Source: a phage. From it: a stretch of 64,000 nt of DNA. The notes under the pieces are model-generated. The model saw only the letters and a list, made by a program, of their open reading frames with translations. It was not told the DNA's origin and made no database searches. A program made the position numbers and the translations under genes. Each line of letters opens with the position of its first letter. Position 1 is the first letter of the stretch. This document shows, one piece after another, positions 3,720 to 43,487 of the stretch. Location: assembly GCA_038450185.1 (NCBI GenBank), contig GCA_038450185.1_4765.1, one strand, 5' to 3'.

Positions 3720-3743
3720 TGCCTTTTTTAAAATTTTATGCAA

Positions 3744-4494: not shown

Positions 4495-4500
4495 CACTTT

Positions 4501-5793: not shown

Positions 5794-5973
5794 TTAGAAA
5801 GGGATGGTCATTTCTTGAGCTTGTACATTCTCGTTAGGATTAAACTTCATCCAACCGATATTGTCTACCAGCATATGTACATTTTTATCATATCCTACGT
5901 GAGTAGTCAACACTAAATGTGCTTTACCTTCAACGATGATTTCCATGTACTTCTGAACTTCGATAGCTTTCAT
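5794..5973 (-). CDS. hypothetical 59-aa protein (below ORF-track size cutoff)
   Basis: Hand translation: ATG at 5973 after GGAGAATCAAA RBS, MKAIEVQKYMEIIVEG..., stop at 5794-5796; promoter cassette upstream. Confidence 0.4.
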   Translation of the reverse strand: MKAIEVQKYMEIIVEGKAHLVLTTHVGYDKNVHMLVDNIGWMKFNPNENVQAQEMTIPF

Positions 5974-6005
5974 TTTGATTCTCCGTTTGTTGTCTTGATG
6001 GGAGT

Positions 6006-6034
6006 ATATTACTACTCCCTTTAATCATTGTCAA
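6006..6034 (-). promoter_or_regulatory. early promoter cassette (TTGACA-17-TAATAT) with palindrome across -10
   Basis: GGGAGTATATTACTACTCCC palindrome overlaps the -10 box. Confidence 0.45.
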
Positions 6035-6037
6035 CTA

Positions 6038-6205
6038 TTATTTGTTAATTTCCGGTGCGTTGCTCGGATAGTAACCTTCTTTAACACCCAGATATTTCGC
6101 AACCATTCCGGTGATCTTCTGTGCTACTACGATATCGAATTTCAGGTAGTCTTCACCGTGGTTTGCTACAATGTATGCTTCGCATTCTGCTTTAGTCTGG
6201 AACAT
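6038..6205 (-). CDS. hypothetical small protein (paralogue of 2295..2462)
   Basis: ORF track 6038..6241 trimmed to ATG 6205 (MFQTKAECEAY). Confidence 0.5.
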   Translation of the reverse strand: MFQTKAECEAYIVANHGEDYLKFDIVVAQKITGMVAKYLGVKEGYYPSNAPEINK

Positions 6206-6239
6206 TTTTGATTCTCCTATATCTCGTTGGTATGTGTGC

Positions 6240-6268
6240 ATTATAGGGGATCACCGATCCCCTGTCAA
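6240..6268 (-). promoter_or_regulatory. early promoter cassette (TTGACA-17-TATAAT), palindromic spacer
   Basis: About 45 bp identical to the cassette at 111-155. Confidence 0.6.
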
Positions 6269-6276
6269 CAACTTTT

Positions 6277-6579
6277 TTATTCTTCGTCTTTATCTTTATA
6301 TGCGTATTTCATAAATTTGTCTGCTACTTCATCGGCATGTTCCGATTCTACGTCGGATTCGAGAACAATAGCAAGATCGGTTTCGTCGTTTCCGTCATAC
6401 CAATGATTATGAGTATCGTTTTCTTCGATATAGAATGAGTCATTTGGAGTTGGACGACAATATACATCTAAATTCTCATCGATGTAAAAGATCCAATCTT
6501 CGTAAAGAATAACCGTATTAGCCAGATTTTTATTGCCTTCAACGAAAGGTTCAGCTACAAATAGCTTAGTTTGTTCCAT
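6277..6579 (-). CDS. hypothetical protein, HxHxHW family paralogue
   Basis: ORF track 6277..6636 trimmed to ATG 6579 with GAGGAAAA SD; motifs YIDENLDVY, THNHW, LAIVLESDV. Confidence 0.5.
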   Translation of the reverse strand: MEQTKLFVAEPFVEGNKNLANTVILYEDWIFYIDENLDVYCRPTPNDSFYIEENDTHNHWYDGNDETDLAIVLESDVESEHADEVADKFMKYAYKDKDEE

Positions 6580-7343: not shown

Positions 7344-7377
7344 AATTGATTCTCCTAGTTCGTTTCGGTATGTGTGT

Positions 7378-7406
7378 AGTATAGGGGATCGGTGATCCCC
7401 TGTCAA
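7378..7406 (-). promoter_or_regulatory. early promoter cassette (TTGACA-17-TATACT), palindromic spacer
   Basis: Spacer GGGGATCACCGATCCCC on minus strand. Confidence 0.55.
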
Positions 7407-7419
7407 CAACTTTTTTGAA

Positions 7420-7896
7420 TTATTTTTCTTTATGCTCGCGCTCATACTTTTCGAAATAAAATTCTACTGGCTGGTCGTGGATTGACAGTAAGCCAAAGCG
7501 TTTAGCCGCTCGCAATCCCATATTGCGCTGAATGTACTTCTGGAAGTTCTCGCGTATACACTTACGCCAGTATTCTAAGCCCATACAGCTTTTATAAAGA
7601 TTGCATTGCACACATGCCGGATTCATGTTATCAAGTATATCATGCTCCGGTTTATGCATTCCTACAACCTTATACTTCCACGATCCATCATCATTACGGG
7701 CAATTCGTCCATTTTCATCATAGACTACCTTTGAGCGTCGCAATACTGGTTTGATGTGGTCTGCGTGCCAGCGATCCCCTAGTTCCTCGCCACAATAGGC
7801 ACAACGTCCACCATATTTCATTTTCAGGATCTGGCGTTGCTCTTTCTTTGACAATTTTTTAGGTTTAGGGGCTTTCGCCCCTTCATTATCACACAT
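7420..7896 (-). CDS. HNH endonuclease domain protein
   Basis: ORF track; CAYCGEEL...HADHIKP...CVQCNLYKS zinc-binding HNH signature; overlaps ligase gene by a few nt. Confidence 0.55.
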   Translation of the reverse strand: MCDNEGAKAPKPKKLSKKEQRQILKMKYGGRCAYCGEELGDRWHADHIKPVLRRSKVVYDENGRIARNDDGSWKYKVVGMHKPEHDILDNMNPACVQCNLYKSCMGLEYWRKCIRENFQKYIQRNMGLRAAKRFGLLSIHDQPVEFYFEKYEREHKEK

Positions 7897-14802: not shown

Positions 14803-15201
14803 TTAACTTTCCAGAATATCGCGAGCTTCGTTACGCTCCTTGATGATTTTCAGGACAAATTCCAGTTTTTCTTTGTTTAGTGTTCCGTTTTCCATTGCTT
14901 CTTTGACGGTAAACACTCCTCCACCTTGCCCGTATACAGTGACAGTGATTTCACCTAACATCGTGGTGTGAAAACCGCCAATTTTCGGTGATTCGAAAGA
15001 AACAATTACCTCGCGGACAGTATTGCCGTCGTTGATTTCTGAGAGGGTAATGTCGTTTTTGTAGGCGGTTGCTTTAACCATACGGATCAGCATAGTCTGA
15101 TCTGGGGAGATGGTCATTTTGTCCATTGCATGTTGCAATGCAGCGTAACCGAAAACTTTAACGAAGTCCAGAACGTCTTTGCGAGTTTGAAAATTAATCA
15201 T
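14803..15201 (-). CDS. hypothetical protein
   Basis: ORF track; ATG 15201 with AAGGAG SD; promoter cassette upstream. Confidence 0.45.
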   Translation of the reverse strand: MINFQTRKDVLDFVKVFGYAALQHAMDKMTISPDQTMLIRMVKATAYKNDITLSEINDGNTVREVIVSFESPKIGGFHTTMLGEITVTVYGQGGGVFTVKEAMENGTLNKEKLEFVLKIIKERNEARDILES

Positions 15202-15234
15202 CTTGATACTCCTTAGTTGTTTTGGTATGGGAGT

Positions 15235-15263
15235 ATCTTACTACTCCCGTGATATGCTGTCAA
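15235..15263 (-). promoter_or_regulatory. early promoter cassette (TTGACA-17-TAAGAT) with palindrome across -10
   Basis: GGGAGTATCTTACTACTCCC palindrome. Confidence 0.45.
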
Positions 15264-15271
15264 CTGCTTTT

Positions 15272-15421
15272 TTATGCAACCGCAAACATCAACATTTGAA
15301 CATTCTTGGCTGTCTGGCTTTCAAAGTTCTGACATTCTTTGATAATGTCCTCTACTTTCTCGCCGGAGATCTCCGCGTAAGTTTCGATTGCCATTTTCAG
15401 TACCGCGTCAAAGTTGTTCAT
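15272..15421 (-). CDS. hypothetical 49-aa protein (below ORF-track size cutoff)
   Basis: Hand translation: ATG 15421 after GGAGAATCAAA RBS, MNNFDAVLKMAIETYAEISGEKV..., stop 15272-15274. Confidence 0.35.
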   Translation of the reverse strand: MNNFDAVLKMAIETYAEISGEKVEDIIKECQNFESQTAKNVQMLMFAVA

Positions 15422-15459
15422 TTGATTCTCCTTAAAGTGTATTTCGTTTCGATGGGGGT

Positions 15460-15488
15460 ATATTACTACCCCCGTTTCATGCTGTCAA
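15460..15488 (-). promoter_or_regulatory. early promoter cassette (TTGACA-17-TAATAT) with palindrome across -10
   Basis: GGGGGTATATTACTACCCCC palindrome. Confidence 0.45.
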
Positions 15489-15707
15489 CTACTTTTTAAT
15501 GACAAGTTCGAATTTTGCTACCTTGCGTCCTCGTTTATTGAAAGCAACCCACGGACGGTTTTCAATGTAGAACAATTCTTCGCCAATAATGAATACTGGC
15601 TGATTGTAAAGGCGACCCATCAGGTCACGCTGGCGAATGGTAGTAGATTCGTATACTTCTCCCACTACAAAGTGTTTGCTGATAGAGTCGGTGCAAGTAA
15701 ATTTCAT
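15489..15707 (-). CDS. hypothetical protein
   Basis: ORF track; ATG 15707; promoter cassette upstream. Confidence 0.45.
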   Translation of the reverse strand: MKFTCTDSISKHFVVGEVYESTTIRQRDLMGRLYNQPVFIIGEELFYIENRPWVAFNKRGRKVAKFELVIKK

Positions 15708-15740
15708 TTTGATTCTCCTTTGTTTCGTTTCGATGGGGGT

Positions 15741-15769
15741 ATATTACTACCCCCGTTATTCAGTGTCAA
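15741..15769 (-). promoter_or_regulatory. early promoter cassette (TTGACA-17-TAATAT) with palindrome across -10
   Basis: Identical core to cassette at 15460. Confidence 0.45.
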
Positions 15770-15776
15770 CTACTTT

Positions 15777-15995
15777 TTACTTGTTGTATTCATTCCACCA
15801 TTGGGTTAGCTTATCAATTATTTTTGTGTTTCTATCCAACTTCTCCCACCGTTTTCTAGGGTTTATCAACCGGAATAGGTAAGGTGTACTTGTTAAGTGA
15901 ACTCGGTCAATGTAGTGATTGATGTACTGCTTTTCGATTCTAAGTTTCATCTTTTTACGATGAAAATATGCAATGACTTGTTCTTCTGTTTCCAT
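15777..15995 (-). CDS. hypothetical protein
   Basis: ORF track; ATG 15995; promoter cassette upstream. Confidence 0.45.
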   Translation of the reverse strand: METEEQVIAYFHRKKMKLRIEKQYINHYIDRVHLTSTPYLFRLINPRKRWEKLDRNTKIIDKLTQWWNEYNK

Positions 15996-22997: not shown

Positions 22998-23025
22998 ATT
23001 ATACACTATTGCGTTACGCTGTCAA
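22998..23025 (-). promoter_or_regulatory. early promoter (TTGACA-16-TATAAT)
   Basis: Hexamers upstream of gene starting 22966. Confidence 0.5.
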
Positions 23026-24030
23026 CTCTTTTTCAAAAGTTTTTACGATATACATGATAGTGCTCAATTCAGACGGCGCGACTGTTTCTGTGTAGCCATC
23101 CGGCATATCTTCTTTTGAGATATAGGAAGTTTTACCTTTCATCGCTTCCTTGATCTTGTTCTCTAATTCTAAGATCTTTTGACCGTCTTGTAAAGTCAAT
23201 TCATAAAAGATCTCGTGGTCGAATTTAGATTTCGCTGATTGGTTTCTCATTCGTTCTTGTGTTGTTAAATTGGTTATTCCAAATTTGATTCCATAAAAAC
23301 ATGATTTTTTAATTAGTTTTTGAATGTATAGTGTTCCGTGTTTTAAAGTGTTGTATCCAAATCTAGCACAACTTGAACATCTATTTCCTGATAGAAACCC
23401 GTTAATTGTTGGTGTAAATGTATGACCATTACAACATTGCAATTTTAATTTTGTTGTATTTCCTTTCCATTCACCTATAAATCCATTGAATAGTATGTTT
23501 TCTTTATCAAAGATTGGTTTAATTCTAATAATATAGTCATCTTTGGGTATTGATTTTAATTCTTTCAGTTTTAACCGGTAGCATTCTTGGCAGCGTCTTC
23601 CATTTTTGAAATTGTTAATTGTTGGTGTAAATGTATGTCCATTACAACATTGTAGATTTAATTTTGTCGATGACCTTTTCCATTCACCTATAAATCCATT
23701 GAATAGTATGTTTTCTTTATCAAAGATTGGAGTTAACTTATGTAGATGTTCATCTTCCGAAAAAGATTTCATCCTTCCATTCTTTATGTCTGCACATTTA
23801 TGACAGCGATTTCCAGCGTTGAAATTGTTAATTGTTATTGTAAATGTATGACCATTACAACATTGCAATTTTAATTTTGTTGTATTTCCTTTCCATTCAC
23901 CTATAAATCCAATAAACTTTATATTTTCTTTAAAGAATGTTGGTTTTAATTCTTCGTAGTAATTCACTGGAGATTTTGAATTGTGAGCTTTTCTAACCCA
24001 TTCAATCTCATGTGCTTGACGTACTAACAT
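23014..24030 (-). CDS. triple zinc-finger repeat protein with C-terminal T5orf172 / GIY-YIG-like domain
   Basis: ORF track 23014..24075 trimmed to ATG 24030 with GGAGG SD; three ~70-aa repeats each carrying QCCNGHTFT...C..C; C-terminal FYGIKFGITNLTTQERMRNQ. Confidence 0.5.
   Translation of the reverse strand: MLVRQAHEIEWVRKAHNSKSPVNYYEELKPTFFKENIKFIGFIGEWKGNTTKLKLQCCNGHTFTITINNFNAGNRCHKCADIKNGRMKSFSEDEHLHKLTPIFDKENILFNGFIGEWKRSSTKLNLQCCNGHTFTPTINNFKNGRRCQECYRLKLKELKSIPKDDYIIRIKPIFDKENILFNGFIGEWKGNTTKLKLQCCNGHTFTPTINGFLSGNRCSSCARFGYNTLKHGTLYIQKLIKKSCFYGIKFGITNLTTQERMRNQSAKSKFDHEIFYELTLQDGQKILELENKIKEAMKGKTSYISKEDMPDGYTETVAPSELSTIMYIVKTFEKELTA
23370..23935 (-). repeat. three in-frame tandem repeats of ~210 bp inside CDS 23014..24030
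   Basis: Near-identical nucleotide blocks visible three times in this span, encoding the zinc-finger units. Confidence 0.6.
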
Positions 24031-24060
24031 AATTTTATCCTCCGTTGTTTCTATGGGTGC

Positions 24061-24089
24061 ATTATACATTACCACATCAGCATGTCAAT
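24061..24089 (-). promoter_or_regulatory. early promoter (TTGACA-17-TATAAT)
   Basis: Hexamers upstream of gene starting 24030. Confidence 0.5.
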
Positions 24090-24114: not shown

Positions 24115-24138
24115 AAAAAAGCCTCCCCGAAGGAAGGC
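24115..24138 (-). terminator. intrinsic terminator after gene 32
   Basis: GCCTCCC-cgaa-GGAAGGC hairpin preceded by AAAAAA. Confidence 0.55.
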
Positions 24139-24149
24139 TTTAAAATTCA

Positions 24150-25170: not shown

Positions 25171-25199
25171 ACTATATCAGATACTTAATTGCTTGTCAA
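25171..25199 (-). promoter_or_regulatory. possible promoter for gene 32 (TTGACA-17-TATAGT)
   Basis: Hexamers about 45 nt upstream of gene 32 start; overlaps 3' end of HNH gene. Confidence 0.35.
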
Positions 25200-25781
25200 T
25201 ACTTTATCAATTATATCTAACAGTTTTGGCTTTCTATTTTCAAATTCTAACATCTCTTCGGGAGAAATGTCAACTACTTCTGTTTTGTTGAAAAAGTTTG
25301 GGTCTATAGCATCAGCAACAAAGTTTCTCGCAAGTGCTGCCGCTTTCTCATGAACATATATTCCCAAATATATCAACTTCTTTCTTTCGACCTGAATATT
25401 GGCAACATATTTACCATCTCGTTTATAAAGACTAACACCGATATATTCAGACGATCGACCTTTCTGTTTACCCATATTTCTTGAGTTTTGTTGCTCGTTC
25501 GCATCTCTCAAGTTTTCAATCCGATTATCTGTTATAATTCGGTTAACATGGTCAACGTATTTTGGCATGTATCCATGATGCATAAAGAAAATTATTCTAT
25601 GCTCTTTATGATGTTTACCATCGATACACACCAATCTGTATCCATGACTAGGATTAACTCCACCAGCTCTAGATCCGACTTTATGCTTTCGGTTTGTCGA
25701 TATCTTGCAAATCAGCTTACCGTTATCATATTTAAAGAGTTCATGACAACGAGCATACAATTCAGGATCATATGTTTTCAC
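25185..25781 (-). CDS. HNH homing-endonuclease-like protein with AP2-type DNA-binding domain
   Basis: ORF track; HNH core HGYRLVCIDGKHHKEHRII...VDHVNRIITDNRIENLR and AP2-like SEYIGVSLYKRDGKYVA; apparent GTG start with GAGGT SD; inserted between 32 and 59. Confidence 0.55.
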   Translation of the reverse strand: MKTYDPELYARCHELFKYDNGKLICKISTNRKHKVGSRAGGVNPSHGYRLVCIDGKHHKEHRIIFFMHHGYMPKYVDHVNRIITDNRIENLRDANEQQNSRNMGKQKGRSSEYIGVSLYKRDGKYVANIQVERKKLIYLGIYVHEKAAALARNFVADAIDPNFFNKTEVVDISPEEMLEFENRKPKLLDIIDKVLTSN

Positions 25782-26454: not shown

Positions 26455-26724
26455 TTAAATATCGAGAGTGTTGGTCGGTTCGTCGATCACTCCCTTCCTG
26501 AGTGTTCTATTTACTATACATTCTTGTGTGATCTTGTCAATAATGGACACCGGAATATACTTCTGATAGTGACCATATTCTATAGAGTTTTCCTCTACAA
26601 ACTGAGTGGTCGCTTCAAGATAAGTCAATCCCTCTTCAACAACCAGTTTTTCGATTGCAAGACCGTTTGCTGTTTTGTTCGCGGCTTTTACCGCATGTTC
26701 ATTAAGCATTGAACACCCGATCAT
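26455..26724 (-). CDS. 33: possible late-transcription accessory protein (gp33-like by position)
   Basis: ORF track; assignment by synteny between 59 and dsbA only; start uncertain (ATG 26724 or 26709). Confidence 0.3.
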   Translation of the reverse strand: MIGCSMLNEHAVKAANKTANGLAIEKLVVEEGLTYLEATTQFVEENSIEYGHYQKYIPVSIIDKITQECIVNRTLRKGVIDEPTNTLDI

Positions 26725-26977
26725 AGAGTTCTACCGCTTCGTCGCGTTCTGCTTCGAAGGTTTCGCGCTGTTGCTGGTGATACAGTTTAAACAGAATGCC
26801 CCACATTTTACCATCTACGCCTAATTCTTCTTTAGCACGCTGTTTGATCTCTTTGATCTTATCGCCATATGCTTCTTGAATTGTTTTCTGATCGCTGGCT
26901 TCTTTAATCAGTTGTGCCAGGGTATTTCCGTGTACATTTTCATCGAATACTACTTTTTCTTTTTTCTGTTCAGTCAT
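26702..26977 (-). CDS. dsbA: possible dsDNA-binding protein DsbA-like (by position)
   Basis: ORF track; ~91 aa between 33-like gene and rnh as in T4. Confidence 0.4.
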   Translation of the reverse strand: MTEQKKEKVVFDENVHGNTLAQLIKEASDQKTIQEAYGDKIKEIKQRAKEELGVDGKMWGILFKLYHQQQRETFEAERDEAVELYDRVFNA

Positions 26978-26982: not shown

Positions 26983-27585
26983 TTAACCCTCTTTCGTCAT
27001 TAATTGAAAACCACGTTCAGCTTTTGAAATTTCGCTAGGACTTAAATCGTCACCAACATATTCTAGCATCATTTCTCGGATAATGTCAAGTGCTTTTTCA
27101 TCACCTGATTTTAACTCGAACTCAAGTTCATAATTTGCGCTTGTGTTGATAGTATATCTACCTATTCCTGCATAATTAAATGCATCTGTGCATATTTCAA
27201 CTAAGCCTACACCAGTATCAATTGTTCTAGCTACTCTCGCTGTCATCACATAAAATTGCGGTCTAAGTTGTGTTAAATTGACACCCAGACAATCAACAAA
27301 TTCAGAAAAATCTTGATAATTACATAACACTATTTCTTCTCGGTTAAATAAACCGCTTTCGTGACTTCCATGTTTTATTAGAAATTTATTTGTCTTTTTG
27401 TCAAGACGTGCATACACTCCCTGTTTATGTAAAATATATTCTTCGTCATCATAATACGATTCTAGCTTATTATAGATTTTTCTGTCTACAATACTATAAC
27501 AATCATATAACTTAGAACATGCGTCAAAAATAGACTTAAGCCCTTTGTTTGACCTTGCATAGTATTTTAATTCAAGTTCTTTCAT
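26983..27585 (-). CDS. CYTH-like (triphosphate tunnel metalloenzyme / class IV adenylate cyclase fold) protein
   Basis: ORF track; N-terminal ELELKY (ExExK) and C-terminal YELEFELK acidic strand pattern typical of CYTH; ATG 27585 with AAGGA SD. Confidence 0.45.
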   Translation of the reverse strand: MKELELKYYARSNKGLKSIFDACSKLYDCYSIVDRKIYNKLESYYDDEEYILHKQGVYARLDKKTNKFLIKHGSHESGLFNREEIVLCNYQDFSEFVDCLGVNLTQLRPQFYVMTARVARTIDTGVGLVEICTDAFNYAGIGRYTINTSANYELEFELKSGDEKALDIIREMMLEYVGDDLSPSEISKAERGFQLMTKEG

Positions 27586-27595
27586 ATGTCAATCC

Positions 27596-28543
27596 TTAGA
27601 ACTCACCAATTTTCTGCAACATTTTAACTAACGCATTTGTTACAAAATAGTTATAAATCTTACCGCGTGGTGCTGGTTTAGATTTCTCCCATGACTCCAG
27701 GATCTGATTCTGGATATTGTCTGGGATCTCGTCAAAGTCAATCAACTGACGGTTTTCATCAAAGCGTCGTGCTTCTTCCTCTGTCATCAAAGACTTTGGA
27801 TCTTCGGCATCGAAAATTTGCTCTAACCATTTGGTTGCAATTGGTTTAGCTCGTTCTCCTTCCAGTCGTGAGATAATGAAATCACTACGGCACTTGATCG
27901 AAGCTACACCGTCTTTTGCGTCACCCTTAACACATTTTACCATAAGGTCTTTGTAAGGGCTACCATATTTGCATTTCTTCCATGCTTTCTGTACTGGCGC
28001 CCACTGTTTCACGTTTTTGTATTTGTGCAACTGTGTGTAGTCACCATCGCCGGAGTTGATTAGCACCTGGCGACCTTCTACAGAAAACTTTTTAGTTAAC
28101 ACAGCGATTATATCATCCGCTTCAACTTTGTCAACCTTAATAACGTGATAAGGCATGTTCTCTTTAAACTCTTCGGTGATCTTATTGATCGCAGCAAAGA
28201 TCATCTCCCAATCACGCGGATCTGCGTCTCGTTTTTCCTTACGGTTGCGTTTATAGTAAGGGGCGATATCACGTCGCCAGTAACCTTTGCTTGAATCAAA
28301 GGCAAGTACCGTAATTGGGTATTGCTCTTTGAATTTTGTCATATTATAACGCATGGTGTCAAGAATAAGATGACGGATCATGCCTTCACTAATAGGGTCT
28401 TCCGGTTTAAAGGTATGCGAGATAGTAGCAATCATAAGCTGCGACATATCAATCAAATGCACACCTTCCGGCAGTTTATCTTCTGGATCATCGAAGAAAT
28501 CATTAAGTGTAGCGGTAGTTTTTGTAAACGGGTTATACGTCAT
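27596..28543 (-). CDS. rnh: RNase H / 5'-3' exonuclease
   Basis: ORF track; similarity to recalled T4 RNase H (GYWRRDIAPYYKRNR, INSGDGDYTQLHKY, PPRGKIYNYF). Confidence 0.85.
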   Translation of the reverse strand: MTYNPFTKTTATLNDFFDDPEDKLPEGVHLIDMSQLMIATISHTFKPEDPISEGMIRHLILDTMRYNMTKFKEQYPITVLAFDSSKGYWRRDIAPYYKRNRKEKRDADPRDWEMIFAAINKITEEFKENMPYHVIKVDKVEADDIIAVLTKKFSVEGRQVLINSGDGDYTQLHKYKNVKQWAPVQKAWKKCKYGSPYKDLMVKCVKGDAKDGVASIKCRSDFIISRLEGERAKPIATKWLEQIFDAEDPKSLMTEEEARRFDENRQLIDFDEIPDNIQNQILESWEKSKPAPRGKIYNYFVTNALVKMLQKIGEF

Positions 28544-28545: not shown

Positions 28546-28731
28546 TTAAGTTCTCTCCACTCTCACAACAACATATTCGCCAAACGAGTTAGATACTTCA
28601 CGATCATACCCGTATTTCTCCATAACTCGCAGAATTGCATTGTTTAATTCGGCACGGAAATAATTATAATCCTTATCAGGGATTCTGTCAACTACCCATT
28701 TTGCACCTTCTGACAAATCAACTTTAACCAT
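28546..28731 (-). CDS. hypothetical small protein
   Basis: ORF track; ATG 28731 with AAGAGGA SD. Confidence 0.45.
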   Translation of the reverse strand: MVKVDLSEGAKWVVDRIPDKDYNYFRAELNNAILRVMEKYGYDREVSNSFGEYVVVRVERT

Positions 28732-28805: not shown

Positions 28806-31800
28806 ATGGCAGATTTTTCTCAACATTTCAAGGCCACATTTGGCTTTGACGCTGGTAATGAAAAGGTCGTCAATGTAGCATTGGCTGATAAGAATGTCAA
28901 CACCGATGCGGTCAACGTTGAATTTTTCAATTACCATAATGGTATTACTCAGTATGACACAACTCGCGGTTATGATCAATACGGAACTACAATCTATCAA
29001 AACCGTCCGTATTATGCAAAAGAAGATATCACAAAACCAGCAGGTGACTTTGACCCGACTAAATGGCAAGCACTGCGCACGGACCCACGTTGGGATTATG
29101 TTGCAGCAACTTCCGGCGATACTCCTTTAAAGTCCGGTGATTATATCGCAGCGGACTGTCAGTTTGCAAACTTGACATTCTCAATGCCTACTAATCCGGC
29201 AGAGGGCGACACTATAACAGTAAAAGATATCGGTGGCAAGTGCGGTGTTAATGAGTTATCGTTCCTTGCGGCTGGTCATGAGTTCTATCATAACGGTGTG
29301 GTAAACAACCGCAAATGGTATTGTACTACCCCTTATGCAATGAACTACTTCATTTTTGCTCGCAATCGCTGGCACGTTTACCAGACGGGAACAGAGCCGC
29401 GCGGGGTATATGCACAACCATCTATCGACCCGATTCAGATGCAAAACGGTGATCAGGTATTCCGCCGTAGTTCTTTGGGTAACATTGTTTTGATGCTTCC
29501 TAAGTTTGCTAATAACGGTGATATAATCCAGACTACCGATCTTGACGGATTGACTGCAACCAACCATGTTACGGTAAAAGTGCATGAAGGTGCGCAAGAA
29601 CAATCGATCGGTACTTTCGGGGTAAAAGAAATTGTTGGTAAGCGTAGCGGTCATGGTGTATTCATATTTGACAAACCGGAAAACTTATGGCGTTTGTGGG
29701 ATGGTGATCAGTCTGTTCGCTTGAATCCTATCATTAGTGATACTCGCTTATCCCCCAATAGCTATGTTGCAGTATTTGGTGATCGTGATGTTACCTTGAC
29801 TTTACCGACCAATGTCGAGCCGGGTGATCGTATTCAAGTTTCTATGCAGTATATGCACGGAAACCAGACTTGCCGAATCATTACCTCAGAAGAGGATACA
29901 AAAATCCTTATGCAGAAAAACATGGTTCAGTTTCCTAAGCGTAGCGAGTACCCATTCAATGGGGCCGATACATGGACGGGAGTGTCTGAATTGTCTTTCA
30001 ACGCTGCAAATGATTATGTACCTTATCTGGAGTTCTCTTATTCAGAAGGTGATGATGGTAAGAAATACTGGTTGGTGGCACATGCTCACCCGATTGTAGA
30101 ACGAGTAGATCCGACTCGTAAAGATCGTGTTGGTGTAATTGCACTGGCTACCCAGGATGAAACAAACAAAAACCATGAAGATAATCCTAGCGACGAAGTT
30201 GCGGTGACTCCAAAGGTTCTGGCTAATAAAACAGCCAACGAAACTCGACGCGGTATTGCTCGCATTGCAACTCAAGCGGAAACTCATCAAGATACTGGTT
30301 CCAGCTTCCTGGATGATGTTATCGTTACACCTAAAAAGTTAAATGACTGTGTTGCTACCGAAGCCCGTCGTGGTGTGATGGAAATTGCAACTCAACATGA
30401 AACCAACGAAGGTTTAGACGATACCCGCGCAATCACTCCTAAGAAGTTAGAAGAGCGTCGAGCGTCAGAGGATCTTGCTGGTATCGCTGAAATTGTTCAG
30501 GTAGGCGGTAATGCTGCCGCTCTAAGGGGTGAAGCTGGTACAGGGATCTATAACATCAATGACCATGCTAAAATTGTTACACCGCAAAACATCAACGAAG
30601 TTAAGGCGACCGAAACTTCCCGTGGTGTTGGGTATCTGGCGACGGATGAGGAAGTTCAAGGGGCTACTGAATCAACCCCGCAAGATGCATTGCTGATCAC
30701 TACTCGCACGTTAACCAAGCGCACTGCTACCGAATCCCGTACTGGTATCGCTGAAATTGCAACTCAAGAAGAAACAAACTTAGGCCAAAGTGATGACCAT
30801 ATCATCACACCTAAAAAACTGCATACTCGCCGCGCAACGGAAACTTTACATGGTTTAGCAGAAATTGCAACTCAAGAAGAGTTTGACGCAGGTCTTGACG
30901 ATGCTCGCATTTCTACCCCATTGAAGATTAAAACCTTCTTTGAGAATGCACAGCGTTTGAAAGTAGACCCGACTCAGGGGCTTAACCTTACTGGTGATTT
31001 GTGGCAAGGTATCATGATCAGCGGTCTGGACGCAACCGAAGACACAAAAGGTGTCGCTAAAGTTGCTACTACTCAGCTTACGGATGCTGGTCAAGATGAT
31101 ACTACAATCATCACGCCTAAAAAGCTGCAAGGCAAAAAAGCCACCGAAGGTAAAGAAGGTATTATCCGCGTTGGTACTCAAGCCGAAACCGTGGCTGGTA
31201 CACTGGCTAATGTAGCAATTTCTCCGAAGAACTTCAAATATGTTGTTCAGACAGAGGATACATGGAAAGCAACCGAAGCGCGTCGTGGATTCTTGAAAGT
31301 TGCTACTCAGGAAAACTGTTTTGTTGGTGATAATCTGCAAGGTTCTACTCAAGAACTAGGAAACTACCAGCATGACGGAATTGCTGTTACCCCGAAAGGA
31401 TTAAACTACGCACTTGCTAATTTCTTACCTAAGATGGCAACTGCTCAGAATAGTTTGAAATTGGGTAACGTAGAGGCCGCTAAATGGGCGCGTAGAGACA
31501 TTGACCAGACCATAGAGAGCAATTACACGTTTAATAAAAACGTTAACGTGAAGGGCGATTTAGAGTGCTTAAAATCAGGTTCCTTTGAAACTCTATCTGT
31601 GACTAAGAACTCGACCGATGTTCCGAGTAATGGTCATCTGGTGTTGGGTGAGCGTGGAGTTGACGGTCACACCGGAATTACTCTGCATGGCACAACCGCA
31701 TCGGAAGGCATGAAAAACTCTTGGTCTATTATCGTTGGTGGCACTGGAACAGCGCAAGTTGTTGATAGTGATGCTATCGCTTTCGGTAAAATCAATGATG

Positions 31801-35481: not shown

Positions 35482-38397
35482 ATGGCAGATTTAAGCAGAA
35501 TCCAATTTAAACGTACTAGCACTAAAGGCCGTCGACCTGATGCTGGTACGATGAATCCGGGGGAATTGGCAATCAACCTTGCGGATCAATATCTTCTTAC
35601 TAAAAATGATTCCGGTGCTATTATCAATTTAAGTTGTCCTCCGGTTTATGACAGCGATGTTACAATGGCGGGTAAGGTTAAAGGAAATAATTATATTTTA
35701 AGTAAAACCGCTAATTATTTTGAAGACCAAACCGCGCGAGATCTTAATTATTTTGGTGCGTTTCGACCGAATAATGCTGATGGTTGGTCTAACTTGATTC
35801 TGAACATTCCTCATCCCAGCGGTAAAGCACACGGTCGCGGGTTTGAATTTGAATATGGTTCTAGTTCCTCTCAGGTTAAAACCTATGGCTTTGATAAGGA
35901 TGGTAACAAGAGATTCAGCTTTCGCATGTATCACGAAGGTGATAAACCTACTCCCTCAGAATTGAACGTCTATAGCAAACAAGAAATTGACCGTATGTTT
36001 GTTAAGAACGTTAAAATGGTTGTTCCTTCTGGTGGTGCAACCCGTGGTTATTTTAAAATTGCATCCGCAATGATCCCGCAGAGTGGTCGGATGGCGTTTC
36101 TGCGAATCTATGGTGGTAATGGATATAATGTAAACTCATATGATCAAGTTGATTTTCTTGAAATTGTTATTCGTAGTGGTAATAATAACCCTAAAGGCGT
36201 TAGTATTGCTGCATATCGTCGAAATTCTTTGAACGTCCATGAAGTATTTGCAATTAATACTTCCGGTGATAACTATGACATTTATGTTAACTATGGTCGC
36301 TTCACCGATAACGTTATTGTAGAGTTTGGAAAAACTGTTGATGTTGCATTGACTGTTCACGATGTTCCTGAATTTTCGGCGACTAAACCAGAAACCGGAA
36401 CTAAATTTGATGCTCGTGTTATTACTATGTTCAACACCGAAAACAAAGCCGGAACGTTGATGTTTGATAATAACTCACAAACAACCTATGATATTGTTAG
36501 CCTTAATAACGTACCAGACAACAATAAAAAATATATGCGTAAATTCCGCAGTCGTGCGGCGGAAACAATATGGCATGAAACTGTTCAAGGTGATGTTTAT
36601 CGCCTAGCGACAGGGGCTACCGATCAGAAAGAAGTGTTAAAGATTGTAGGTAGTGATGGTTTATTTGTCAATAGACTTCATCTGCAAGGCAATAACGCGA
36701 TTCGTATGTGGCGTCCTACTGGTTGTAGTAACTATTTTGAATATATGGATCAGCGAGACGGGGCTAATAAACGTCAAGGCTGGTTTGGTTTTGGTTCTAC
36801 AGAAACCAACGATTTTCAATGGTATAGTGACGAAGGTAAAAACTTTGTTAAGCTAGAAGCAAGTGGTCAAGTATCTTTAAGCGCAGGTGCAACCAAAATT
36901 GTATACACTAATGGTCAATATGTAGCTGCCAATTCTGATGCATACCGTATGATCTTTGGTAATTATGGTGCATTCTGGCGTAATGACGGCACTAAAGTTT
37001 ATCTTATGTCTACTGCCGAAAATGATAGATTTGGTGGCTGGAATGCCTATCGTCCATTCATTTATGATTTAACTTCCGGTAACGTTCAATTAGGCGGTGA
37101 TGGTAACGAAGATGCATTAACGTTAGAAAGTGCTTCTCGTGCCGCTCGCTTTAGTAATGACGTTTACATTAAGAAAGGGCTTTTGACTTTCGACGCTGGG
37201 CGATTAAATTCCCGCGATTACTTCCGGTTTAACCATTGGGGCGATAGCAATAACGGTCGCGATAACATTTTACAGCTTGACGATAGCATAGGTCCACACT
37301 TCACCACTGAACGTACTTTAGCAACTGGTTCAATTAAAACTAAATTCTTCGGTAATTTGGAATCTGCTGGTCAAATTAAATGGGGTAAAGGGACCGCCAC
37401 ATCTACGTTTACTCTACGTGTATGGGGTAGCGATAGCCGTAAACAAATATTTGAATGCGGCGATGAAAGCGGGTGGCATTGGTATACCCAACGCGCGGGC
37501 GGTCCTGATACTTCTGCAATTGATTTTGCCATCAATGGTACTGTTAGGCCTCAAGCAATTCACACTGGCGGTAATATCACTATCAACGGTGCTGATATTG
37601 AGTTTAAACGCACTGGCAATAAGCACATCTGGTTTAGAGATCCAAACGGCTTAGAGTTAGGTCTGTTGTACTGCGATGATGCTGGCGTTATGCGTATGCG
37701 CGGTAAGAAACAAACCGAAGTCTGGAAATTCGGCGGTAAGATGATTCAACTTGAAACTGGTACTGTAACCGGTGGCGGTAGTGGTCTGATTCGTGGTAGC
37801 GTTGCTGGTGGTAGTTGGACTAGCTGGCGCGATCGTGCTTCCGGTTTACAGGTCGACTGTCAACAATCAACCGTTTCCGCTCATAACGTATGGAAAGCAA
37901 CCCATCAAGGTAAATATCATATAGCAGCAATGGGTGTACACGTTCCTAGTGGTACTATCGGAAATGCTATGGTGCGTATGCACGTACACGATGCAACTTT
38001 TGACTTTGGTGCGAGCGGTGACTTCCAGGCAAGCCGTAATGGTAATTTTAACGATGTTTATATTCGTTCTGATGCTCGCCTTAAAATCAATAAGGAAGAG
38101 TATAAGGAGAATGCCACCGATAAAGTTAATCGCTTGACGGTATACACCTATGACAAGGTTAAATCTTTAACCGACCGTACTGTCATTGCTCATGAAGTTG
38201 GTATTATTGCTCAGGATCTTGAAAAAGAATTGCCGGAAGCCGTAACAACTTCTAAGATCGGCGATCCAGATAATCCAGAAGAGATCTTAACAATTTCTAA
38301 CTCCGCTGTCAACGCTCTTTTAATTAAGGCGTTTCAGGAAATGAGCGAAGAACTTAAAGCCGTTAAAGCTGAACTAGCGGAACTTAAAAAGAATTAA
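35482..38397 (+). CDS. 37: long tail fibre distal subunit with C-terminal intramolecular chaperone domain
   Basis: ORF track; 971 aa; C-terminal SDARLK ... IAHEVGIIAQDLEKELPEAV ... ISNSAVNALLIKAFQE resembles the self-cleaving S74 chaperone domain. Confidence 0.8.
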   Translation: MADLSRIQFKRTSTKGRRPDAGTMNPGELAINLADQYLLTKNDSGAIINLSCPPVYDSDVTMAGKVKGNNYILSKTANYFEDQTARDLNYFGAFRPNNADGWSNLILNIPHPSGKAHGRGFEFEYGSSSSQVKTYGFDKDGNKRFSFRMYHEGDKPTPSELNVYSKQEIDRMFVKNVKMVVPSGGATRGYFKIASAMIPQSGRMAFLRIYGGNGYNVNSYDQVDFLEIVIRSGNNNPKGVSIAAYRRNSLNVHEVFAINTSGDNYDIYVNYGRFTDNVIVEFGKTVDVALTVHDVPEFSATKPETGTKFDARVITMFNTENKAGTLMFDNNSQTTYDIVSLNNVPDNNKKYMRKFRSRAAETIWHETVQGDVYRLATGATDQKEVLKIVGSDGLFVNRLHLQGNNAIRMWRPTGCSNYFEYMDQRDGANKRQGWFGFGSTETNDFQWYSDEGKNFVKLEASGQVSLSAGATKIVYTNGQYVAANSDAYRMIFGNYGAFWRNDGTKVYLMSTAENDRFGGWNAYRPFIYDLTSGNVQLGGDGNEDALTLESASRAARFSNDVYIKKGLLTFDAGRLNSRDYFRFNHWGDSNNGRDNILQLDDSIGPHFTTERTLATGSIKTKFFGNLESAGQIKWGKGTATSTFTLRVWGSDSRKQIFECGDESGWHWYTQRAGGPDTSAIDFAINGTVRPQAIHTGGNITINGADIEFKRTGNKHIWFRDPNGLELGLLYCDDAGVMRMRGKKQTEVWKFGGKMIQLETGTVTGGGSGLIRGSVAGGSWTSWRDRASGLQVDCQQSTVSAHNVWKATHQGKYHIAAMGVHVPSGTIGNAMVRMHVHDATFDFGASGDFQASRNGNFNDVYIRSDARLKINKEEYKENATDKVNRLTVYTYDKVKSLTDRTVIAHEVGIIAQDLEKELPEAVTTSKIGDPDNPEEILTISNSAVNALLIKAFQEMSEELKAVKAELAELKKN

Positions 38398-39653: not shown

Positions 39654-39961
39654 TCTGGAAACTTCCCGTAAATGTTCTCTGCCAACATACGCGCATCGCT
39701 AATGATATCTTTCATGCTATGACCGTAGTGTTCAGCCATTGAGTTGACACAATCAACAAAGAAATTATAACGGCGACGGTTTAAGATTTCTTCTCTGCTA
39801 TAGTTTTCATATTTGACGGTCGAGTGTGCTTTCTCGATTGCCTTGATCGCTATATTGACTTCATTGATAATGGTTTTAGCATTGTATGCGCCACGACGGA
39901 TCAGGATATTTGTCAATTCTCTTGCAATATCTTGCAATTCTTCATATTCATGTTCAAACAT
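39650..39961 (-). CDS. hypothetical protein
   Basis: ORF track 39650..39982 (TTG); ATG 39961 with GAGAGGT SD. Confidence 0.4.
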   Translation of the reverse strand: MFEHEYEELQDIARELTNILIRRGAYNAKTIINEVNIAIKAIEKAHSTVKYENYSREEILNRRRYNFFVDCVNSMAEHYGHSMKDIISDARMLAENIYGKFPE

Positions 39962-39985
39962 AATCAACCTCTCAAAATACAATCC

Positions 39986-40318
39986 TTACAGATGAAAACC
40001 TGTTACGATCACCGCATCGATCTTACCGCTAGGAATAAACGGTTCGCCCTCTTTTATTTCAACTTTGAATTGATGCCATTTCGCTAATACTTCTTCCGGT
40101 ACACCCAGCGATTCGGCGTCTGCTTTAGTTTCATCCATAATCCAACTAGGCTGCATGAGAGCATAGTTTACATAGTCCATTTCTGGGGTCATGTCATCAA
40201 TGTTAATATATTTGCAGTTGACGCGTTTCAGAATTTCAAATTCTTTATTATCAACCTGTACCATGTATAATTCAGTAGTTTCTGGAATCAGTTCCCACAC
40301 AATCAGTACATTTTTCAT
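39986..40318 (-). CDS. hypothetical protein
   Basis: ORF track; ATG 40318 with GAGGTG SD. Confidence 0.45.
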   Translation of the reverse strand: MKNVLIVWELIPETTELYMVQVDNKEFEILKRVNCKYINIDDMTPEMDYVNYALMQPSWIMDETKADAESLGVPEEVLAKWHQFKVEIKEGEPFIPSGKIDAVIVTGFHL

Positions 40319-41219: not shown

Positions 41220-41978
41220 TTACTTGCAAACGTATTGATCTACATCAATTGCGCCACCGAATGTAGGATGACGTTTTTCGAATCGAATAGTTCCGTCGTT
41301 TGGTTCGAAAACGGAGTATTCATATAGATCTTTCTTGCCAACATTCTTATAAAACCCGCCTTTAGTCATAACGGTTTCTTGTACGTTTGCTTTGTGTACG
41401 TTGTATTCATCAATGTATACAAAATCAACCATCTTCCCATTTTTAATTGTTACTTTAAGATCTCCTGGTTGGTTTCCATATTTGGCATACAGTGGCGCTT
41501 CTTTAATTTTTGTGGAAATTCCATCTTTCATACTCCACTCATAACGAACGGTGCATTGATAGGTAAAAGTTTCGACCTTCGGTTCTTCTACCACTTTTTC
41601 TTCCTGTTTCGGTTGTTCTTCTTCAACCTTCACAGAAGTCTCTGAATCGCTTTCTGACGCGGTTTCTTCTTTAGGTAATACATTCATCAAGTTTTGGATT
41701 TGAGCGTTGTATACAGCCTCCAGTGGCTGAATCTGCCCGATATTGATCATTGTATCACGAACAGTTTTATTCCAGTTGCGTTGCTCTTGTTTCAGAGACG
41801 GATCAATCTTAACAGCTTTAACATATACTTCATGAAGTTTCGAATCCAGTGCGGAGATTGACTCATTAACACAAATAAACTTCTCTGATTTGGTAGTAGC
41901 CTTAGTGCAATCAAAGGACGCAGCATTAGCACCTAAAGCAGTAGCAGAAAGAACGATAGCAGCGATAATGTTTTTCAT
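41220..41978 (-). CDS. secreted protein with DUF1311 / LprI-like N-terminal domain
   Basis: ORF track; signal peptide MKNIIAAIVLSATALGANA; SFDCTKATTKSEKFICVNESISALDSKLHEVY pattern; promoter cassette upstream. Confidence 0.45.
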   Translation of the reverse strand: MKNIIAAIVLSATALGANAASFDCTKATTKSEKFICVNESISALDSKLHEVYVKAVKIDPSLKQEQRNWNKTVRDTMINIGQIQPLEAVYNAQIQNLMNVLPKEETASESDSETSVKVEEEQPKQEEKVVEEPKVETFTYQCTVRYEWSMKDGISTKIKEAPLYAKYGNQPGDLKVTIKNGKMVDFVYIDEYNVHKANVQETVMTKGGFYKNVGKKDLYEYSVFEPNDGTIRFEKRHPTFGGAIDVDQYVCK

Positions 41979-42012
41979 AATATATTCCTCAATGTTTTGT
42001 CTTGATGGGAGT

Positions 42013-42041
42013 ATCTTACTACTCCCTTAATCCGGTGTCAA
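42013..42041 (-). promoter_or_regulatory. early promoter cassette (TTGACA-17-TAAGAT) with palindrome across -10
   Basis: GGGAGTATCTTACTACTCCC palindrome. Confidence 0.45.
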
Positions 42042-42048
42042 CTACTTT

Positions 42049-42204
42049 TTAAATTTCTTCTACAGTAAAGTCTTCAATGTTGTTGTGCTCGGCGAACGTT
42101 GCCAGACCAGCATTCCATGCATCATCCTCAGAGAAGAATACACCGTAACGTTCATATCCTTTAGCGCCTTCAAATTTAACCATTAATTTGTGAGTATGTT
42201 TCAT
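42049..42204 (-). CDS. hypothetical small protein
   Basis: ORF track 42049..42264 trimmed to ATG 42204 (MKHTHKLMV) after GGAGAATCAAA RBS. Confidence 0.4.
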   Translation of the reverse strand: MKHTHKLMVKFEGAKGYERYGVFFSEDDAWNAGLATFAEHNNIEDFTVEEI

Positions 42205-42235
42205 TTTGATTCTCCTTCGTTGTCTTGATGAGTTC

Positions 42236-42264
42236 ATTATAGGGGATCGCAGATCCCCTGTCAA
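42236..42264 (-). promoter_or_regulatory. early promoter cassette (TTGACA-17-TATAAT), palindromic spacer
   Basis: Spacer GGGGATCTGCGATCCCC. Confidence 0.55.
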
Positions 42265-42276
42265 CTATTTTTTAAA

Positions 42277-42537
42277 TTATTTTCGCCATTCACCGGAAAC
42301 AATGAAGTTTGTAAAGTGATTGTGGTCCGTGATAATGTCATTAAGTACCATATGCGGATATGCTTTAGTGTAATCACGTTTACGATCAGTCATCCAACCA
42401 ACGAAAGTCGGTGCAAAGTACGGCACACCGTCAGATGATGCCATATTAAACCCTTTATCAGCCATAAATGCAGCCGCCCTAAGATTTTTAATTGAAGTAG
42501 TGCGACTAATTTCAAAAACTTTATCGGTAAAATTCAT
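42277..42537 (-). CDS. hypothetical protein
   Basis: ORF track 42277..42558; ATG 42537 with GGGGG SD adjacent to upstream stop. Confidence 0.35.
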   Translation of the reverse strand: MNFTDKVFEISRTTSIKNLRAAAFMADKGFNMASSDGVPYFAPTFVGWMTDRKRDYTKAYPHMVLNDIITDHNHFTNFIVSGEWRK

Positions 42538-42538
42538 T

Positions 42539-42748
42539 TTAAACCCCCACTCGTGCATTAATACGCATTTTCTGCATAGCCATGATCTGGCTTACTGCTT
42601 CTTCTTTACGTTCTTGCGTGATAACGTGACCAGATTCCGCAAACTCTCCCGTAACTTCTTCTATGATCTCGCGAACTTGAGAACGTCCAAAGATGCGGTT
42701 TCCTTCGTAGCTCATAAATTCAGTCACTACTTGCTCAATAGATTTCAT
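42539..42748 (-). CDS. hypothetical protein
   Basis: ORF track; ATG 42748; promoter cassette upstream. Confidence 0.45.
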   Translation of the reverse strand: MKSIEQVVTEFMSYEGNRIFGRSQVREIIEEVTGEFAESGHVITQERKEEAVSQIMAMQKMRINARVGV

Positions 42749-42777
42749 GTGATTCTCCTTTCGTTTGGTATGGGAGT

Positions 42778-42806
42778 ATCTTACTACTCCCTTATCTTTA
42801 CGTCAA
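42778..42806 (-). promoter_or_regulatory. early promoter cassette (TTGACG-17-TAAGAT) with palindrome across -10
   Basis: GGGAGTATCTTACTACTCCC palindrome. Confidence 0.4.
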
Positions 42807-42813
42807 CCAGTTT

Positions 42814-43056
42814 TTAGAAATTTTTCGCTTCTTCTTCGGTCATCATCACCGCGCATTCGTGCATAACTTTGAAAACCGGGTCAATCATATCGAATGCTTC
42901 GCGGGACAGTTTACGAGAAGCGATTTTGATTGCTTCAACGTCTTCTACTACAGGAACAAAAACAGTTTTCAGTTCGTCGAGCACGGCAGCTTCTTTTTCA
43001 TTCAGGAAGATTCCAGCGTCGTACAATGCAACTTCGATAACATTAACTTTAACCAT
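42814..43056 (-). CDS. hypothetical acidic protein
   Basis: ORF track 42814..43119 trimmed to ATG 43056 (MVKVNVIEV). Confidence 0.4.
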   Translation of the reverse strand: MVKVNVIEVALYDAGIFLNEKEAAVLDELKTVFVPVVEDVEAIKIASRKLSREAFDMIDPVFKVMHECAVMMTEEEAKNF

Positions 43057-43090
43057 TTTTATTTCCTCCAGTTCGTTTCGGTATGGGAGT

Positions 43091-43119
43091 ATAATACTAC
43101 CGATGACCTTTGGCGTCAA
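43091..43119 (-). promoter_or_regulatory. early promoter cassette (TTGACG-17-TATTAT)
   Basis: Hexamers upstream of gene starting 43056. Confidence 0.4.
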
Positions 43120-43320
43120 CTAGTTTTTGTTATTTTCGTGAAAATTTTTCGTCGCCTCATGTGCTTTTCGCTGGGCTTCTTGTTGTGCTTGCTGGCGTGC
43201 TGCCTCTTGCGATGCCATAACAGACGCATTTGCAGCAGTTACAGCCGCGACCATCGCTGCGGTATTAGCATTTACCGTACATGCACTAGCCAGCAAAGCA
43301 ATTGCAATCATTTTCTTCAT
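43120..43320 (-). CDS. small secreted or lipoprotein-like protein
   Basis: ORF track; signal peptide MKKMIAIALLASACTVNA, Ala/Gln-rich mature part; ATG 43320 with AAAGGGGA SD. Confidence 0.45.
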   Translation of the reverse strand: MKKMIAIALLASACTVNANTAAMVAAVTAANASVMASQEAARQQAQQEAQRKAHEATKNFHENNKN

Positions 43321-43487
43321 AGTTTCCCCTTTAGGTTATCTTCGACCTTCACCCATTCCGCGTATTCTTGCGCGGCTACTTTCGGATTTAAGCCGTCTTC
43401 GTACATTGCTTCAAGTAATTCTTCGTCGGTTGGCTTATACCCTAGATAAGCCTCCACCTGATTTTTCCAAATTTTATACCAGTTCAT
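43317..43487 (-). CDS. hypothetical small protein
   Basis: ORF track 43317..43556; first ATG not overlapping the upstream gene is 43487. Confidence 0.3.
   Translation of the reverse strand: MNWYKIWKNQVEAYLGYKPTDEELLEAMYEDGLNPKVAAQEYAEWVKVEDNLKGKL

Follow-up and report, generated by a model that had tools for sequence, protein, structure and literature searches.

A stand-alone CYTH triphosphate-tunnel protein with a hypervariable core in the rnh/dsbA slot of a Krischvirus: a probable YgiF-type triphosphohydrolase

The gene at positions 26983-27585 (minus strand) of a 64-kb stretch of phage DNA (hereafter the window) encodes a stand-alone 200-amino-acid (aa) protein of the CYTH/triphosphate tunnel metalloenzyme (TTM) superfamily. 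It lies between rnh and dsbA in a Krischvirus, an RB49-like phage of Escherichia coli whose region is 97-98.6% identical to 59 Krischvirus records, and it is the orthologue of RB49ORF244c in an allelic form designated class A. The protein is probably a stand-alone two-metal triphosphohydrolase of the YgiF type, and its tunnel body and outer helices are encoded by a hypervariable cassette whose boundaries are shared by all allele classes. Homology, predicted fold, residue conservation and allelic structure are directly shown by the analysis; the catalytic mechanism, the expression timing and the candidate substrates are inferred. A preliminary description made from the DNA letters had placed a 200-aa open reading frame (ORF) between these two neighbours, which the ORF list and the Pfam assignments of the flanking genes bear out, with the minus strand, left unstated there, now specified. 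Its term "inserted", in contrast, is misleading: the slot is filled in 59 of 59 krischvirus records, and the gene is a standing feature of the genus rather than an insertion peculiar to the window.

Tunnel fold and probable chemistry

Family-level searches place the protein among CYTH enzymes. The Pfam CYTH family (PF01928) is matched by 15 of 16 aligned family members (best E-value 5.8e-8), a family profile search of the PDB finds E. coli YgiF (5a60), and comparison of the phage family with a 25-sequence outgroup CYTH alignment by hhalign gives 99.9% probability (E 1.6e-32, 191 columns). An exhaustive profile search of 1.84 billion representatives returned a tiny phage clade, followed by some 140 CYTH proteins of the stand-alone and CYTH-CHAD kinds. 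Viral matches, apart from the orthologues, comprise further CYTH proteins of phages and capping enzymes of giant viruses, and the window allele matches PHROG 14893 (function unknown) with an E-value of 3e-76. Structure prediction, which the preliminary description had proposed as a check, points the same way: the AlphaFold2 model (predicted local distance difference test score, pLDDT, 86.9; predicted template-modelling score, pTM, 0.80) has eight long strands and a C-terminal helix (residues 188-197), and its best Foldseek match in the PDB is YgiF 5a60 (E 5e-9, query-based TM-score 0.70), followed by thiamine triphosphatase (ThTPase), SaTTM, BH2851, AtTTM3 and CyaB. The top 50 PDB matches are essentially all of the TTM fold, catalytically inactive Mediator Med18/Med20 relatives included. 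The family-level matches are decisive for CYTH membership, as the preliminary description had supposed, and the model is a confident prediction of the triphosphate-tunnel fold, an eight-stranded beta tunnel with a plug helix.

The residues expected of a functional tunnel are present and in register; their roles are taken, via sequence alignments, from the mapping of YgiF and AtTTM3 by Martinez et al. 2015 (PMC4641920). The protein begins MKELELKYY, so that the ExExK motif of strand beta1 consists of E3, E5 and K7 (27565-27579, minus), equivalent to E4, E6 and K8 of YgiF, where the two glutamates are ligands of metal 2 and the lysine binds phosphate. Strand beta3 carries Y58-A-R60-L-D62 (27400-27414, minus), in which R60 corresponds to YgiF R56, the proposed proton donor whose mutation strongly inhibits catalysis, and K71 corresponds to the substrate-binding K69. 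Strand beta8 reads E153-L-E155-F-E157-L-K159 (27109-27129, minus) in the hidden Markov model alignment to 5a60 and in other alignments; E155 matches YgiF E160, a metal 1 ligand invariant across TTMs, and E157 matches E162, a ligand of metal 2. The plug-helix motif S187-K-A-E-R-G-F-Q-L195 (27001-27027, minus) matches SKAARGYHL of YgiF. Also conserved are Y44, R82, E84, R117, E130 and D134, which align with mapped YgiF or AtTTM3 residues.

Across 43 family proteins these catalytic residues are invariant or nearly so, and the two acidic motifs (ExExK and the beta8 ExE) are invariant in the 43 family members and in 26 outgroup CYTH proteins alike. In view of the Pfam, hhalign and Foldseek matches given above, these motifs are no chance resemblance. 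The ELELKY start noted in the preliminary description thus withstands careful alignment, as do the acidic motifs in general; the second motif it cited, YELEFELK, is indeed present at residues 152-159 but does not end the protein, as 41 residues follow, including SKAERGFQL.

Beside these shared features, the phage clade has a signature of its own. The basic tunnel residues R60, K71, R82 and R117 are all present, but the second arginine of the beta3 RxR motif is D62 throughout the phage clade, where it is invariant, as opposed to arginine in 24 of the 26 outgroup proteins. Y58 is found in all phage-clade lineages but one, and an aromatic residue never occupies position 58 in the outgroup; F80 stands in the phage clade where the outgroup often has histidine. 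In AtTTM3, mutation of Arg-54, which is equivalent to the D62 position, does not strongly inhibit catalysis (PMC4641920). Y58 and D62 should control specificity.

By analogy with YgiF, the triphosphate would be clamped in the middle of the tunnel by K7, R60, K71, R82 and R117. Of two metals (Mg2+ or Mn2+), metal 1 would bridge the substrate and E155, and metal 2, held by E3, E5 and E157, would activate the water that removes the terminal phosphate, with R60 as the putative proton donor.

Several points weigh against this interpretation or call for caution. On its own, in single-sequence searches, the window allele has no match in Pfam, NCBIfam or the PDB, and its predicted CYTH membership comes from family profiles and the modelled structure. 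The assignment of side chains to the tunnel or to the outside follows from strand parity and homology instead of atomic coordinates. D62 in place of a conserved arginine could lower the affinity for triphosphate or alter the chemistry beyond the YgiF model. The promoter assignments given below are consensus matches only, and the literature was found to hold no biochemical data for any member of the phage CYTH clade.

The chemistry can be narrowed by published rules. Class IV adenylate cyclases are characterized by an extended HFxxxxExExK motif, by ExA on beta8 and by replacement of the central arginine with a small residue (Vogt et al. 2021, PMC8233210). The adenine-stacking HF extension is absent from the window protein, which has no room for it because M1 and K2 alone precede E3; the beta8 motif is not of the ExA type, as E157 is invariant in the family alignment; and the central beta3 arginine, R60, is invariant as well. 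With all three determinants failing, the protein is very probably a hydrolase that cleaves off phosphate and not a cyclase. It is therefore highly improbable that it makes a cyclic nucleotide in the manner of CyaB, as an adenylate or other nucleotidyl cyclase, although the orthologue is labelled "adenylate cyclase" in phages AV108, PHB13 and KMB43 and CyaB structures occur among the fold matches: the latter rank far below YgiF, and "adenylate cyclase" is a well-known legacy misnomer of CYTH proteins (PMC3440374, PMC8233210).

The ThTPase rule, W/YxRxR on beta3 (PMC8233210), is matched by Y58 and R60 but not by the last position, where D62 replaces the arginine. The C-terminal, polyphosphate-binding CHAD domain of YgiF-type CYTH-CHAD inorganic triphosphatases is missing, as the window protein stops at residue 200, right after the plug helix; in YgiF the TTM domain comprises residues 1-200 of 433 (PMC4641920). 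Neither the window allele nor the family members match the Cet1-like RNA triphosphatase family (PF02940) in Pfam, and the structural match to Schizosaccharomyces pombe Pct1 is weak (TM-score 0.36-0.38, E 6e-4, as against 0.70 for YgiF in Foldseek).

The latter results bear on the possibility of an RNA 5'-triphosphatase that takes the gamma-phosphate off 5'-ppp RNA, such as pppApC Okazaki primers or host and phage transcripts. The fold superfamily is common to Cet1-type and giant-virus RNA triphosphatases, and the gene lies directly 3' of rnh, whose product removes RNA primers. However, besides the missing Cet1-like match and the weak similarity to Pct1, the closest relatives are small-molecule triphosphatases, the conserved plug helix is predicted to shut one end of the tunnel as in YgiF and ThTPase, and gene adjacency is weak evidence in T4-like phages, so that we consider this reading improbable. 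Of the functions suggested in the preliminary description, the making of a cyclic nucleotide is thus disfavoured and RNA 5'-end processing, while possible, finds no support, whereas triphosphate hydrolysis is retained as the working model.

For the triphosphohydrolase, inorganic triphosphate (PPPi) or short polyphosphate (polyP), as in every characterized bacterial relative that is neither a cyclase nor a ThTPase, is the leading candidate substrate by analogy, if a tentative one. An organic triphosphate, resembling a nucleotide or thiamine triphosphate, appears about as likely because of the clade-specific Y58, at the position of the ThTPase tryptophan, and of D62 in place of a phosphate-binding arginine; it would come second by a little. 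In ThTPase, W53 stacks on the thiazole ring of the substrate, and by this analogy the Y58/D62 tunnel hints at an organic triphosphate rather than bare PPPi.

A non-catalytic role as a triphosphate-binding sponge, or as a decoy of host YgiF interfering with host polyphosphate metabolism, would fit D62 in place of a substrate-binding arginine. Phages are known to employ sponges that bind immune nucleotides. Yet the E3, E5 and E157 patch and R60 are invariant, though a mere binder would not need them, and the polyP-binding CHAD domain is absent; we regard such a role as very unlikely.

A sharply bounded allelic cassette

The variation of the gene is concentrated in codons 10-151 (27133-27558, minus), a hypervariable cassette delimited by diversity, identity and shared boundaries and encoding the tunnel body and outer helices. 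Since a scan of IMG/VR viral contigs gave just three loci, the population analysis was based on GenBank phage records and metagenome contigs. From about 27121 to 27555 the nucleotide (nt) identity to RB49 is 48-58%, as compared with 92-100% on either side. Among 14 krischvirus loci, nucleotide diversity in the core is 0.28-0.34 (0.19-0.28 without class A), roughly tenfold higher than in rnh, dsbA, 33 and 59, where it is typically about 0.02. A local rise to 0.12-0.14 in the 3' third of rnh (27662-27781) also stands above this background and is far below the CYTH core.

The core alleles fall into at least three classes, 39-45% identical in protein between classes: class A (window, Skers and P0004 type), class B (RB49, ECD7 and JK32 subtypes, 77-81% identical to one another) and class C (P0033). 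Phage backbones carrying differing classes are nevertheless 96-99% identical. The cassette has the same boundaries in every class, and codons 1-9 and 152 onward are identical or nearly so even at synonymous sites. In the core, the synonymous divergence (dS) is 0.9 or higher and in 38 of 91 pairs saturated, as compared with 0.06-0.18 in the neighbouring genes. The ratio of non-synonymous to synonymous divergence (dN/dS) has an overall value of 0.23 and a range of 0.10-0.39 among unsaturated pairs, the neighbours giving 0.003-0.07. Pervasive positive selection is unsupported by these ratios in unsaturated pairs. Variation also avoids the predicted tunnel: core positions predicted to line it have on average 1.85 distinct residues, as opposed to 4.11 at the other positions (p = 7e-10), and a parity-shifted control gives 4.26.

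An imperfect direct repeat brackets the core at 27565-27582 and 27109-27132 (minus), reading GAACTTGAATTAAAAT on the 5' side and GAACTTGAG…GAGTTAAAAT on the 3' side and coding for the ELELK and ELEFELK strands. Such a repeat might aid in anchoring recombination at the fixed boundaries.

Two possible sources of this pattern were considered and rejected. A diversity-generating retroelement (DGR) would be expected to leave a template repeat in the window; neither a direct nor an inverted repeat of 27133-27558 occurs elsewhere in the 64 kb, which makes a mechanism of this type unlikely, and the synonymous divergence and discrete classes fit old alleles instead. Co-conversion with the nearby HNH gene (25185-25781) as the sole cause of the allele swap is countered by a P0004-type phage that lacks the HNH gene yet has a core like that of class A (84% identity), and by the DNA from the HNH gene to the CYTH core, which is 97-100% identical to RB49.

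Most simply, old lineages of alleles would have been kept and shuffled by homologous recombination, and the backbone homogenized as far as the catalytic strands beta1 and beta8, which evolve slowly; the CYTH enzyme function would have been maintained under purifying selection. The divergence between core alleles is about that of sister-genus orthologues, whose flanking genes are about 80% identical.

The cassette is one of only about eight substantial low-identity islands (at least 200 nt) relative to RB49 in the window, besides a few 100-nt dips. Most of the islands fall in a repeat-containing endonuclease-like ORF, the HNH insertion, tail-fibre segments and small early ORFs. Other sharp ones, in surroundings of 98% median identity, lie at 36301-36900, 37501-37800 and 39701-40000, in distal tail-fibre genes, at 42301-42600 and 42801-43400, in small early ORFs (by position on the RB49 map), and at 54301-54500. 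The CYTH core is thus found in the company of mobile and host-interaction loci. The pattern suggests host-driven balancing selection on the cassette, with which this company fits without proving it.

Given this pattern, the gene can reasonably be put forward as a candidate for a role in host interaction or counter-defence. As a refinement of the triphosphohydrolase model that does not contradict it, the enzyme might destroy a triphosphate molecule relevant to infection, such as a signal of immunity or alarm, oligonucleotides bearing a 5'-triphosphate, or PPPi set free by dNTP triphosphohydrolases of the host. Its variable outer shell would then reflect an arms race with host factors by which the protein is sensed or inhibited. 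The diverse core, with at least three classes about 40% identical in near-identical backbones and a preserved tunnel, speaks for such a counter-defence or host-takeover hydrolase, as do the other islands, which are for the most part mobile or host-interaction loci (homing-endonuclease genes, segments of tail-fibre genes, small early ORFs), and the faster evolution of the gene relative to its neighbours between genera (37-41% versus 79-82% identity). On the other hand, the window allele alone matches no PADLOC defence-system model, a literature search found no phage CYTH protein tied to defence and nothing specific on an anti-defence role of phage CYTH/TTM proteins, dN/dS never exceeds 0.4 and gives no direct signature of positive selection, and old alleles reshuffled by recombination could last without host-driven selection. 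We therefore rate counter-defence as an unlikely extension, if a plausible one in view of the population pattern. The same doubtful standing applies to a combined scenario in which Y58 and D62 mark a new specificity of a counter-defence or host-manipulation hydrolase that acts on a nucleotide-like triphosphate early in infection, and in which several ancient, recombining alleles of a catalytically irrelevant shell are kept by balancing selection because host sensors or inhibitors recognize its surface.

The gene is in any case among the few islands of diversity with sharp boundaries in a genus otherwise about 98% identical. Should it encode a commonplace hydrolase of PPPi whose alleles simply drift, the finding amounts to a modest correction of annotation.

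Genomic setting, expression and annotation

In T4, dsbA directly adjoins rnh, so the CYTH gene is absent, in agreement with the preliminary description. The slot 5' of dsbA-33 is also filled by a CYTH gene in three more distant uncultured T4-like contigs, whose proteins are 41%, 37% and 27% identical to the window protein; rnh lies upstream in the first of them, the sole one to reach that far.

The link of this family to CYTH is not new, and the novelty implied by the preliminary description was overstated. The RB49 GenBank record describes RB49ORF244c as "similar to P45267, P30871, HI1598, ygiF", and Nolan et al. 2006 (PMC1524935) list it with a CYTH domain (E 0.0026), so that the link for the RB49 orthologue has been on record since 2003-2006. 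The labels of krischvirus orthologues are inconsistent—mostly "hypothetical protein", in a few cases "adenylate cyclase" or "inorganic triphosphatase"—and triphosphohydrolase, not cyclase, is a defensible annotation. In the literature searched, no phage CYTH/TTM enzyme was found to have been characterized biochemically or genetically, and in a survey of jumbo phages the degradation of unmodified NTPs by CYTH triphosphatases is put forward only as a speculation. New here, and not found reported in the papers searched, are the assignment as a hydrolase and not a cyclase, the Y58/D62 signature of the clade, and the allelic cassette with its sharp boundaries.

The gene is tightly packed between its neighbours, 10 nt from the rnh stop codon and 5 nt from the dsbA start. 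Its Shine-Dalgarno sequence AAGGA, read directly from the sequence, lies 7 nt 5' of the ATG (27593-27597, minus) and overlaps the rnh stop codon, and the ribosome-binding site of dsbA (GAGGG) falls within the final codons of the CYTH gene. Upstream, rnh (27596-28543, minus) encodes an RNase H/5'-3' exonuclease (Pfam RNaseH_C 5e-38, 5_3_exonuc_N 4e-18); downstream lies dsbA (26702-26977, minus; Phage_DsbA 5e-22). By Pfam, the minus-strand set includes gp32, an HNH_3 and AP2 endonuclease, gp59, gp33, dsbA, the CYTH gene and rnh, with gp34 encoded on the plus strand.

The minus-strand block runs ORF246c-rnh-CYTH-dsbA-33-59-(HNH)-32. A consensus scan found a perfect (12/12) sigma-70 site, TTGACA-17-TATAAT, 5' of rnh (28663-28691, minus), a candidate early promoter for the genes from rnh to 32, and a second perfect site of this type within rnh (28134-28107). 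A terminator-like hairpin with a T-run follows gene 32 (24118-24141, minus) and probably ends the transcription unit. The late-promoter motif TATAAATA was not found on the minus strand near the CYTH gene, and its sole nearby copy faces gene 34 on the other strand. Given the upstream sigma-70 sites, the terminator after 32 and the lack of a minus-strand late motif, the CYTH gene is likely to be expressed early and co-transcribed with rnh, dsbA, 33, 59 and 32.

Two further strong sigma-70-like sites (11/12) fall within the CYTH gene, in its conserved end regions, at 27564-27592 and 27060-27089 (minus). The first overlaps the start codon and takes its -10 box, TAAAAT, from codons L6-K7-Y8; the second, with an extended -10, is 85 nt 5' of dsbA. 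They may be coincidental in AT-rich DNA, an internal dsbA-33 promoter being conceivable; functional support was not seen, and diversity in the conserved 3' part is not below that of the neighbouring genes.

Other features of the window were noted in passing. The HNH_3 and AP2 homing-endonuclease-like gene (198 aa, 25185-25781, minus) lies between genes 59 and 32, overlaps the 3' end of gene 59, and is present in phage Skers but absent from RB49, Phi1, JSE and others. Because T4 holds the unrelated GIY-YIG endonuclease SegG in the same place, the 59|32 slot looks like a recurrent homing site. Directly 3' of gene 32, a 353-aa ORF (23014-24075, minus) contains three tandem cysteine-rich repeats of 71 aa (213 nt) at 23401-23982, with the pattern …FIGEWKGNTTKLKLQCCNGHTFT…RC..C. 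Its Skers orthologue is annotated as a GIY-YIG nuclease family protein, and its region is an island differing from RB49, where RB49ORF239c fills the slot; gene 32 is thus adjoined by endonuclease-like genes on both sides. Gene 34 (30113-31327), for the proximal long-tail-fibre subunit, has six copies of a 60-nt (20-aa) repeat, …ATE.R.G.AEIATQEE…, and uneven identity to RB49 (0.72-0.98). Finally, dispersed repeats of about 50-90 nt between small early ORFs combine a TTGACA-like box, a GC-rich stem-loop and a TATAAT-like box on the minus strand (104-167, 2233-2299, 2464-2551, 3184-3245, 3672-3733, 4447-4508, 5966-6044, 6208-6295, 7346-7433, 15195-15779, 41973-43128 and 50855-50921); they resemble promoter/stem-loop cassettes and may have a role in early-gene shuffling.

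Comparison with known tunnel enzymes

The best profile and structural match to the phage protein is the N-terminal TTM domain of YgiF (PDB 5a60/5a61). Both have, in register, the ExExK motif, a Y-K pair, the proton-donor arginine, an R-x-E strand, the beta8 ExExE and the SKxxRG plug helix. They differ in that the phage protein has Y58, D62 and F80 where YgiF has Gly, Arg-58 and His, and lacks the CHAD domain; overall identity is about 16-24%. Mammalian ThTPase (PDB 5a64/5a65) is the second-best structural match, with marginal sequence similarity. Common to the two is an aromatic residue two positions before the catalytic arginine (W53 in ThTPase, Y58 in the phage protein), but the W/Y-x-R-x-R strand of ThTPase ends in arginine and that of the phage protein has aspartate there. 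CyaB and YpAC-IV have the superfamily and fold in common with the phage protein, which is without their HF motif, ExA and arginine-to-small change.

A further parallel is offered by the stand-alone bacterial and archaeal TTM triphosphatases NeuTTM, CthTTM, SaTTM and BH2851, which, like the phage protein, are single-domain proteins of about 150-200 aa with the same catalytic constellation and predicted hydrolase chemistry. In contrast with the phage protein, they carry the beta3 RxR and a small residue at the position of Y58, and allelic cassette variation is not known for them. Within the genus, RB49ORF244c and the other krischvirus orthologues (PHROG 14893) occupy the same rnh/dsbA slot and are near-identical to the window gene in codons 1-9 and 152-200, even at synonymous sites, whereas the protein identity of the window core (codons 10-151) to the RB49-type (B) and P0033-type (C) cores is 39-43%, and the DNA identity about 50%; the RB49-type and P0033-type alleles match Pfam CYTH on their own, and the window allele, set between the same conserved ends, does not.

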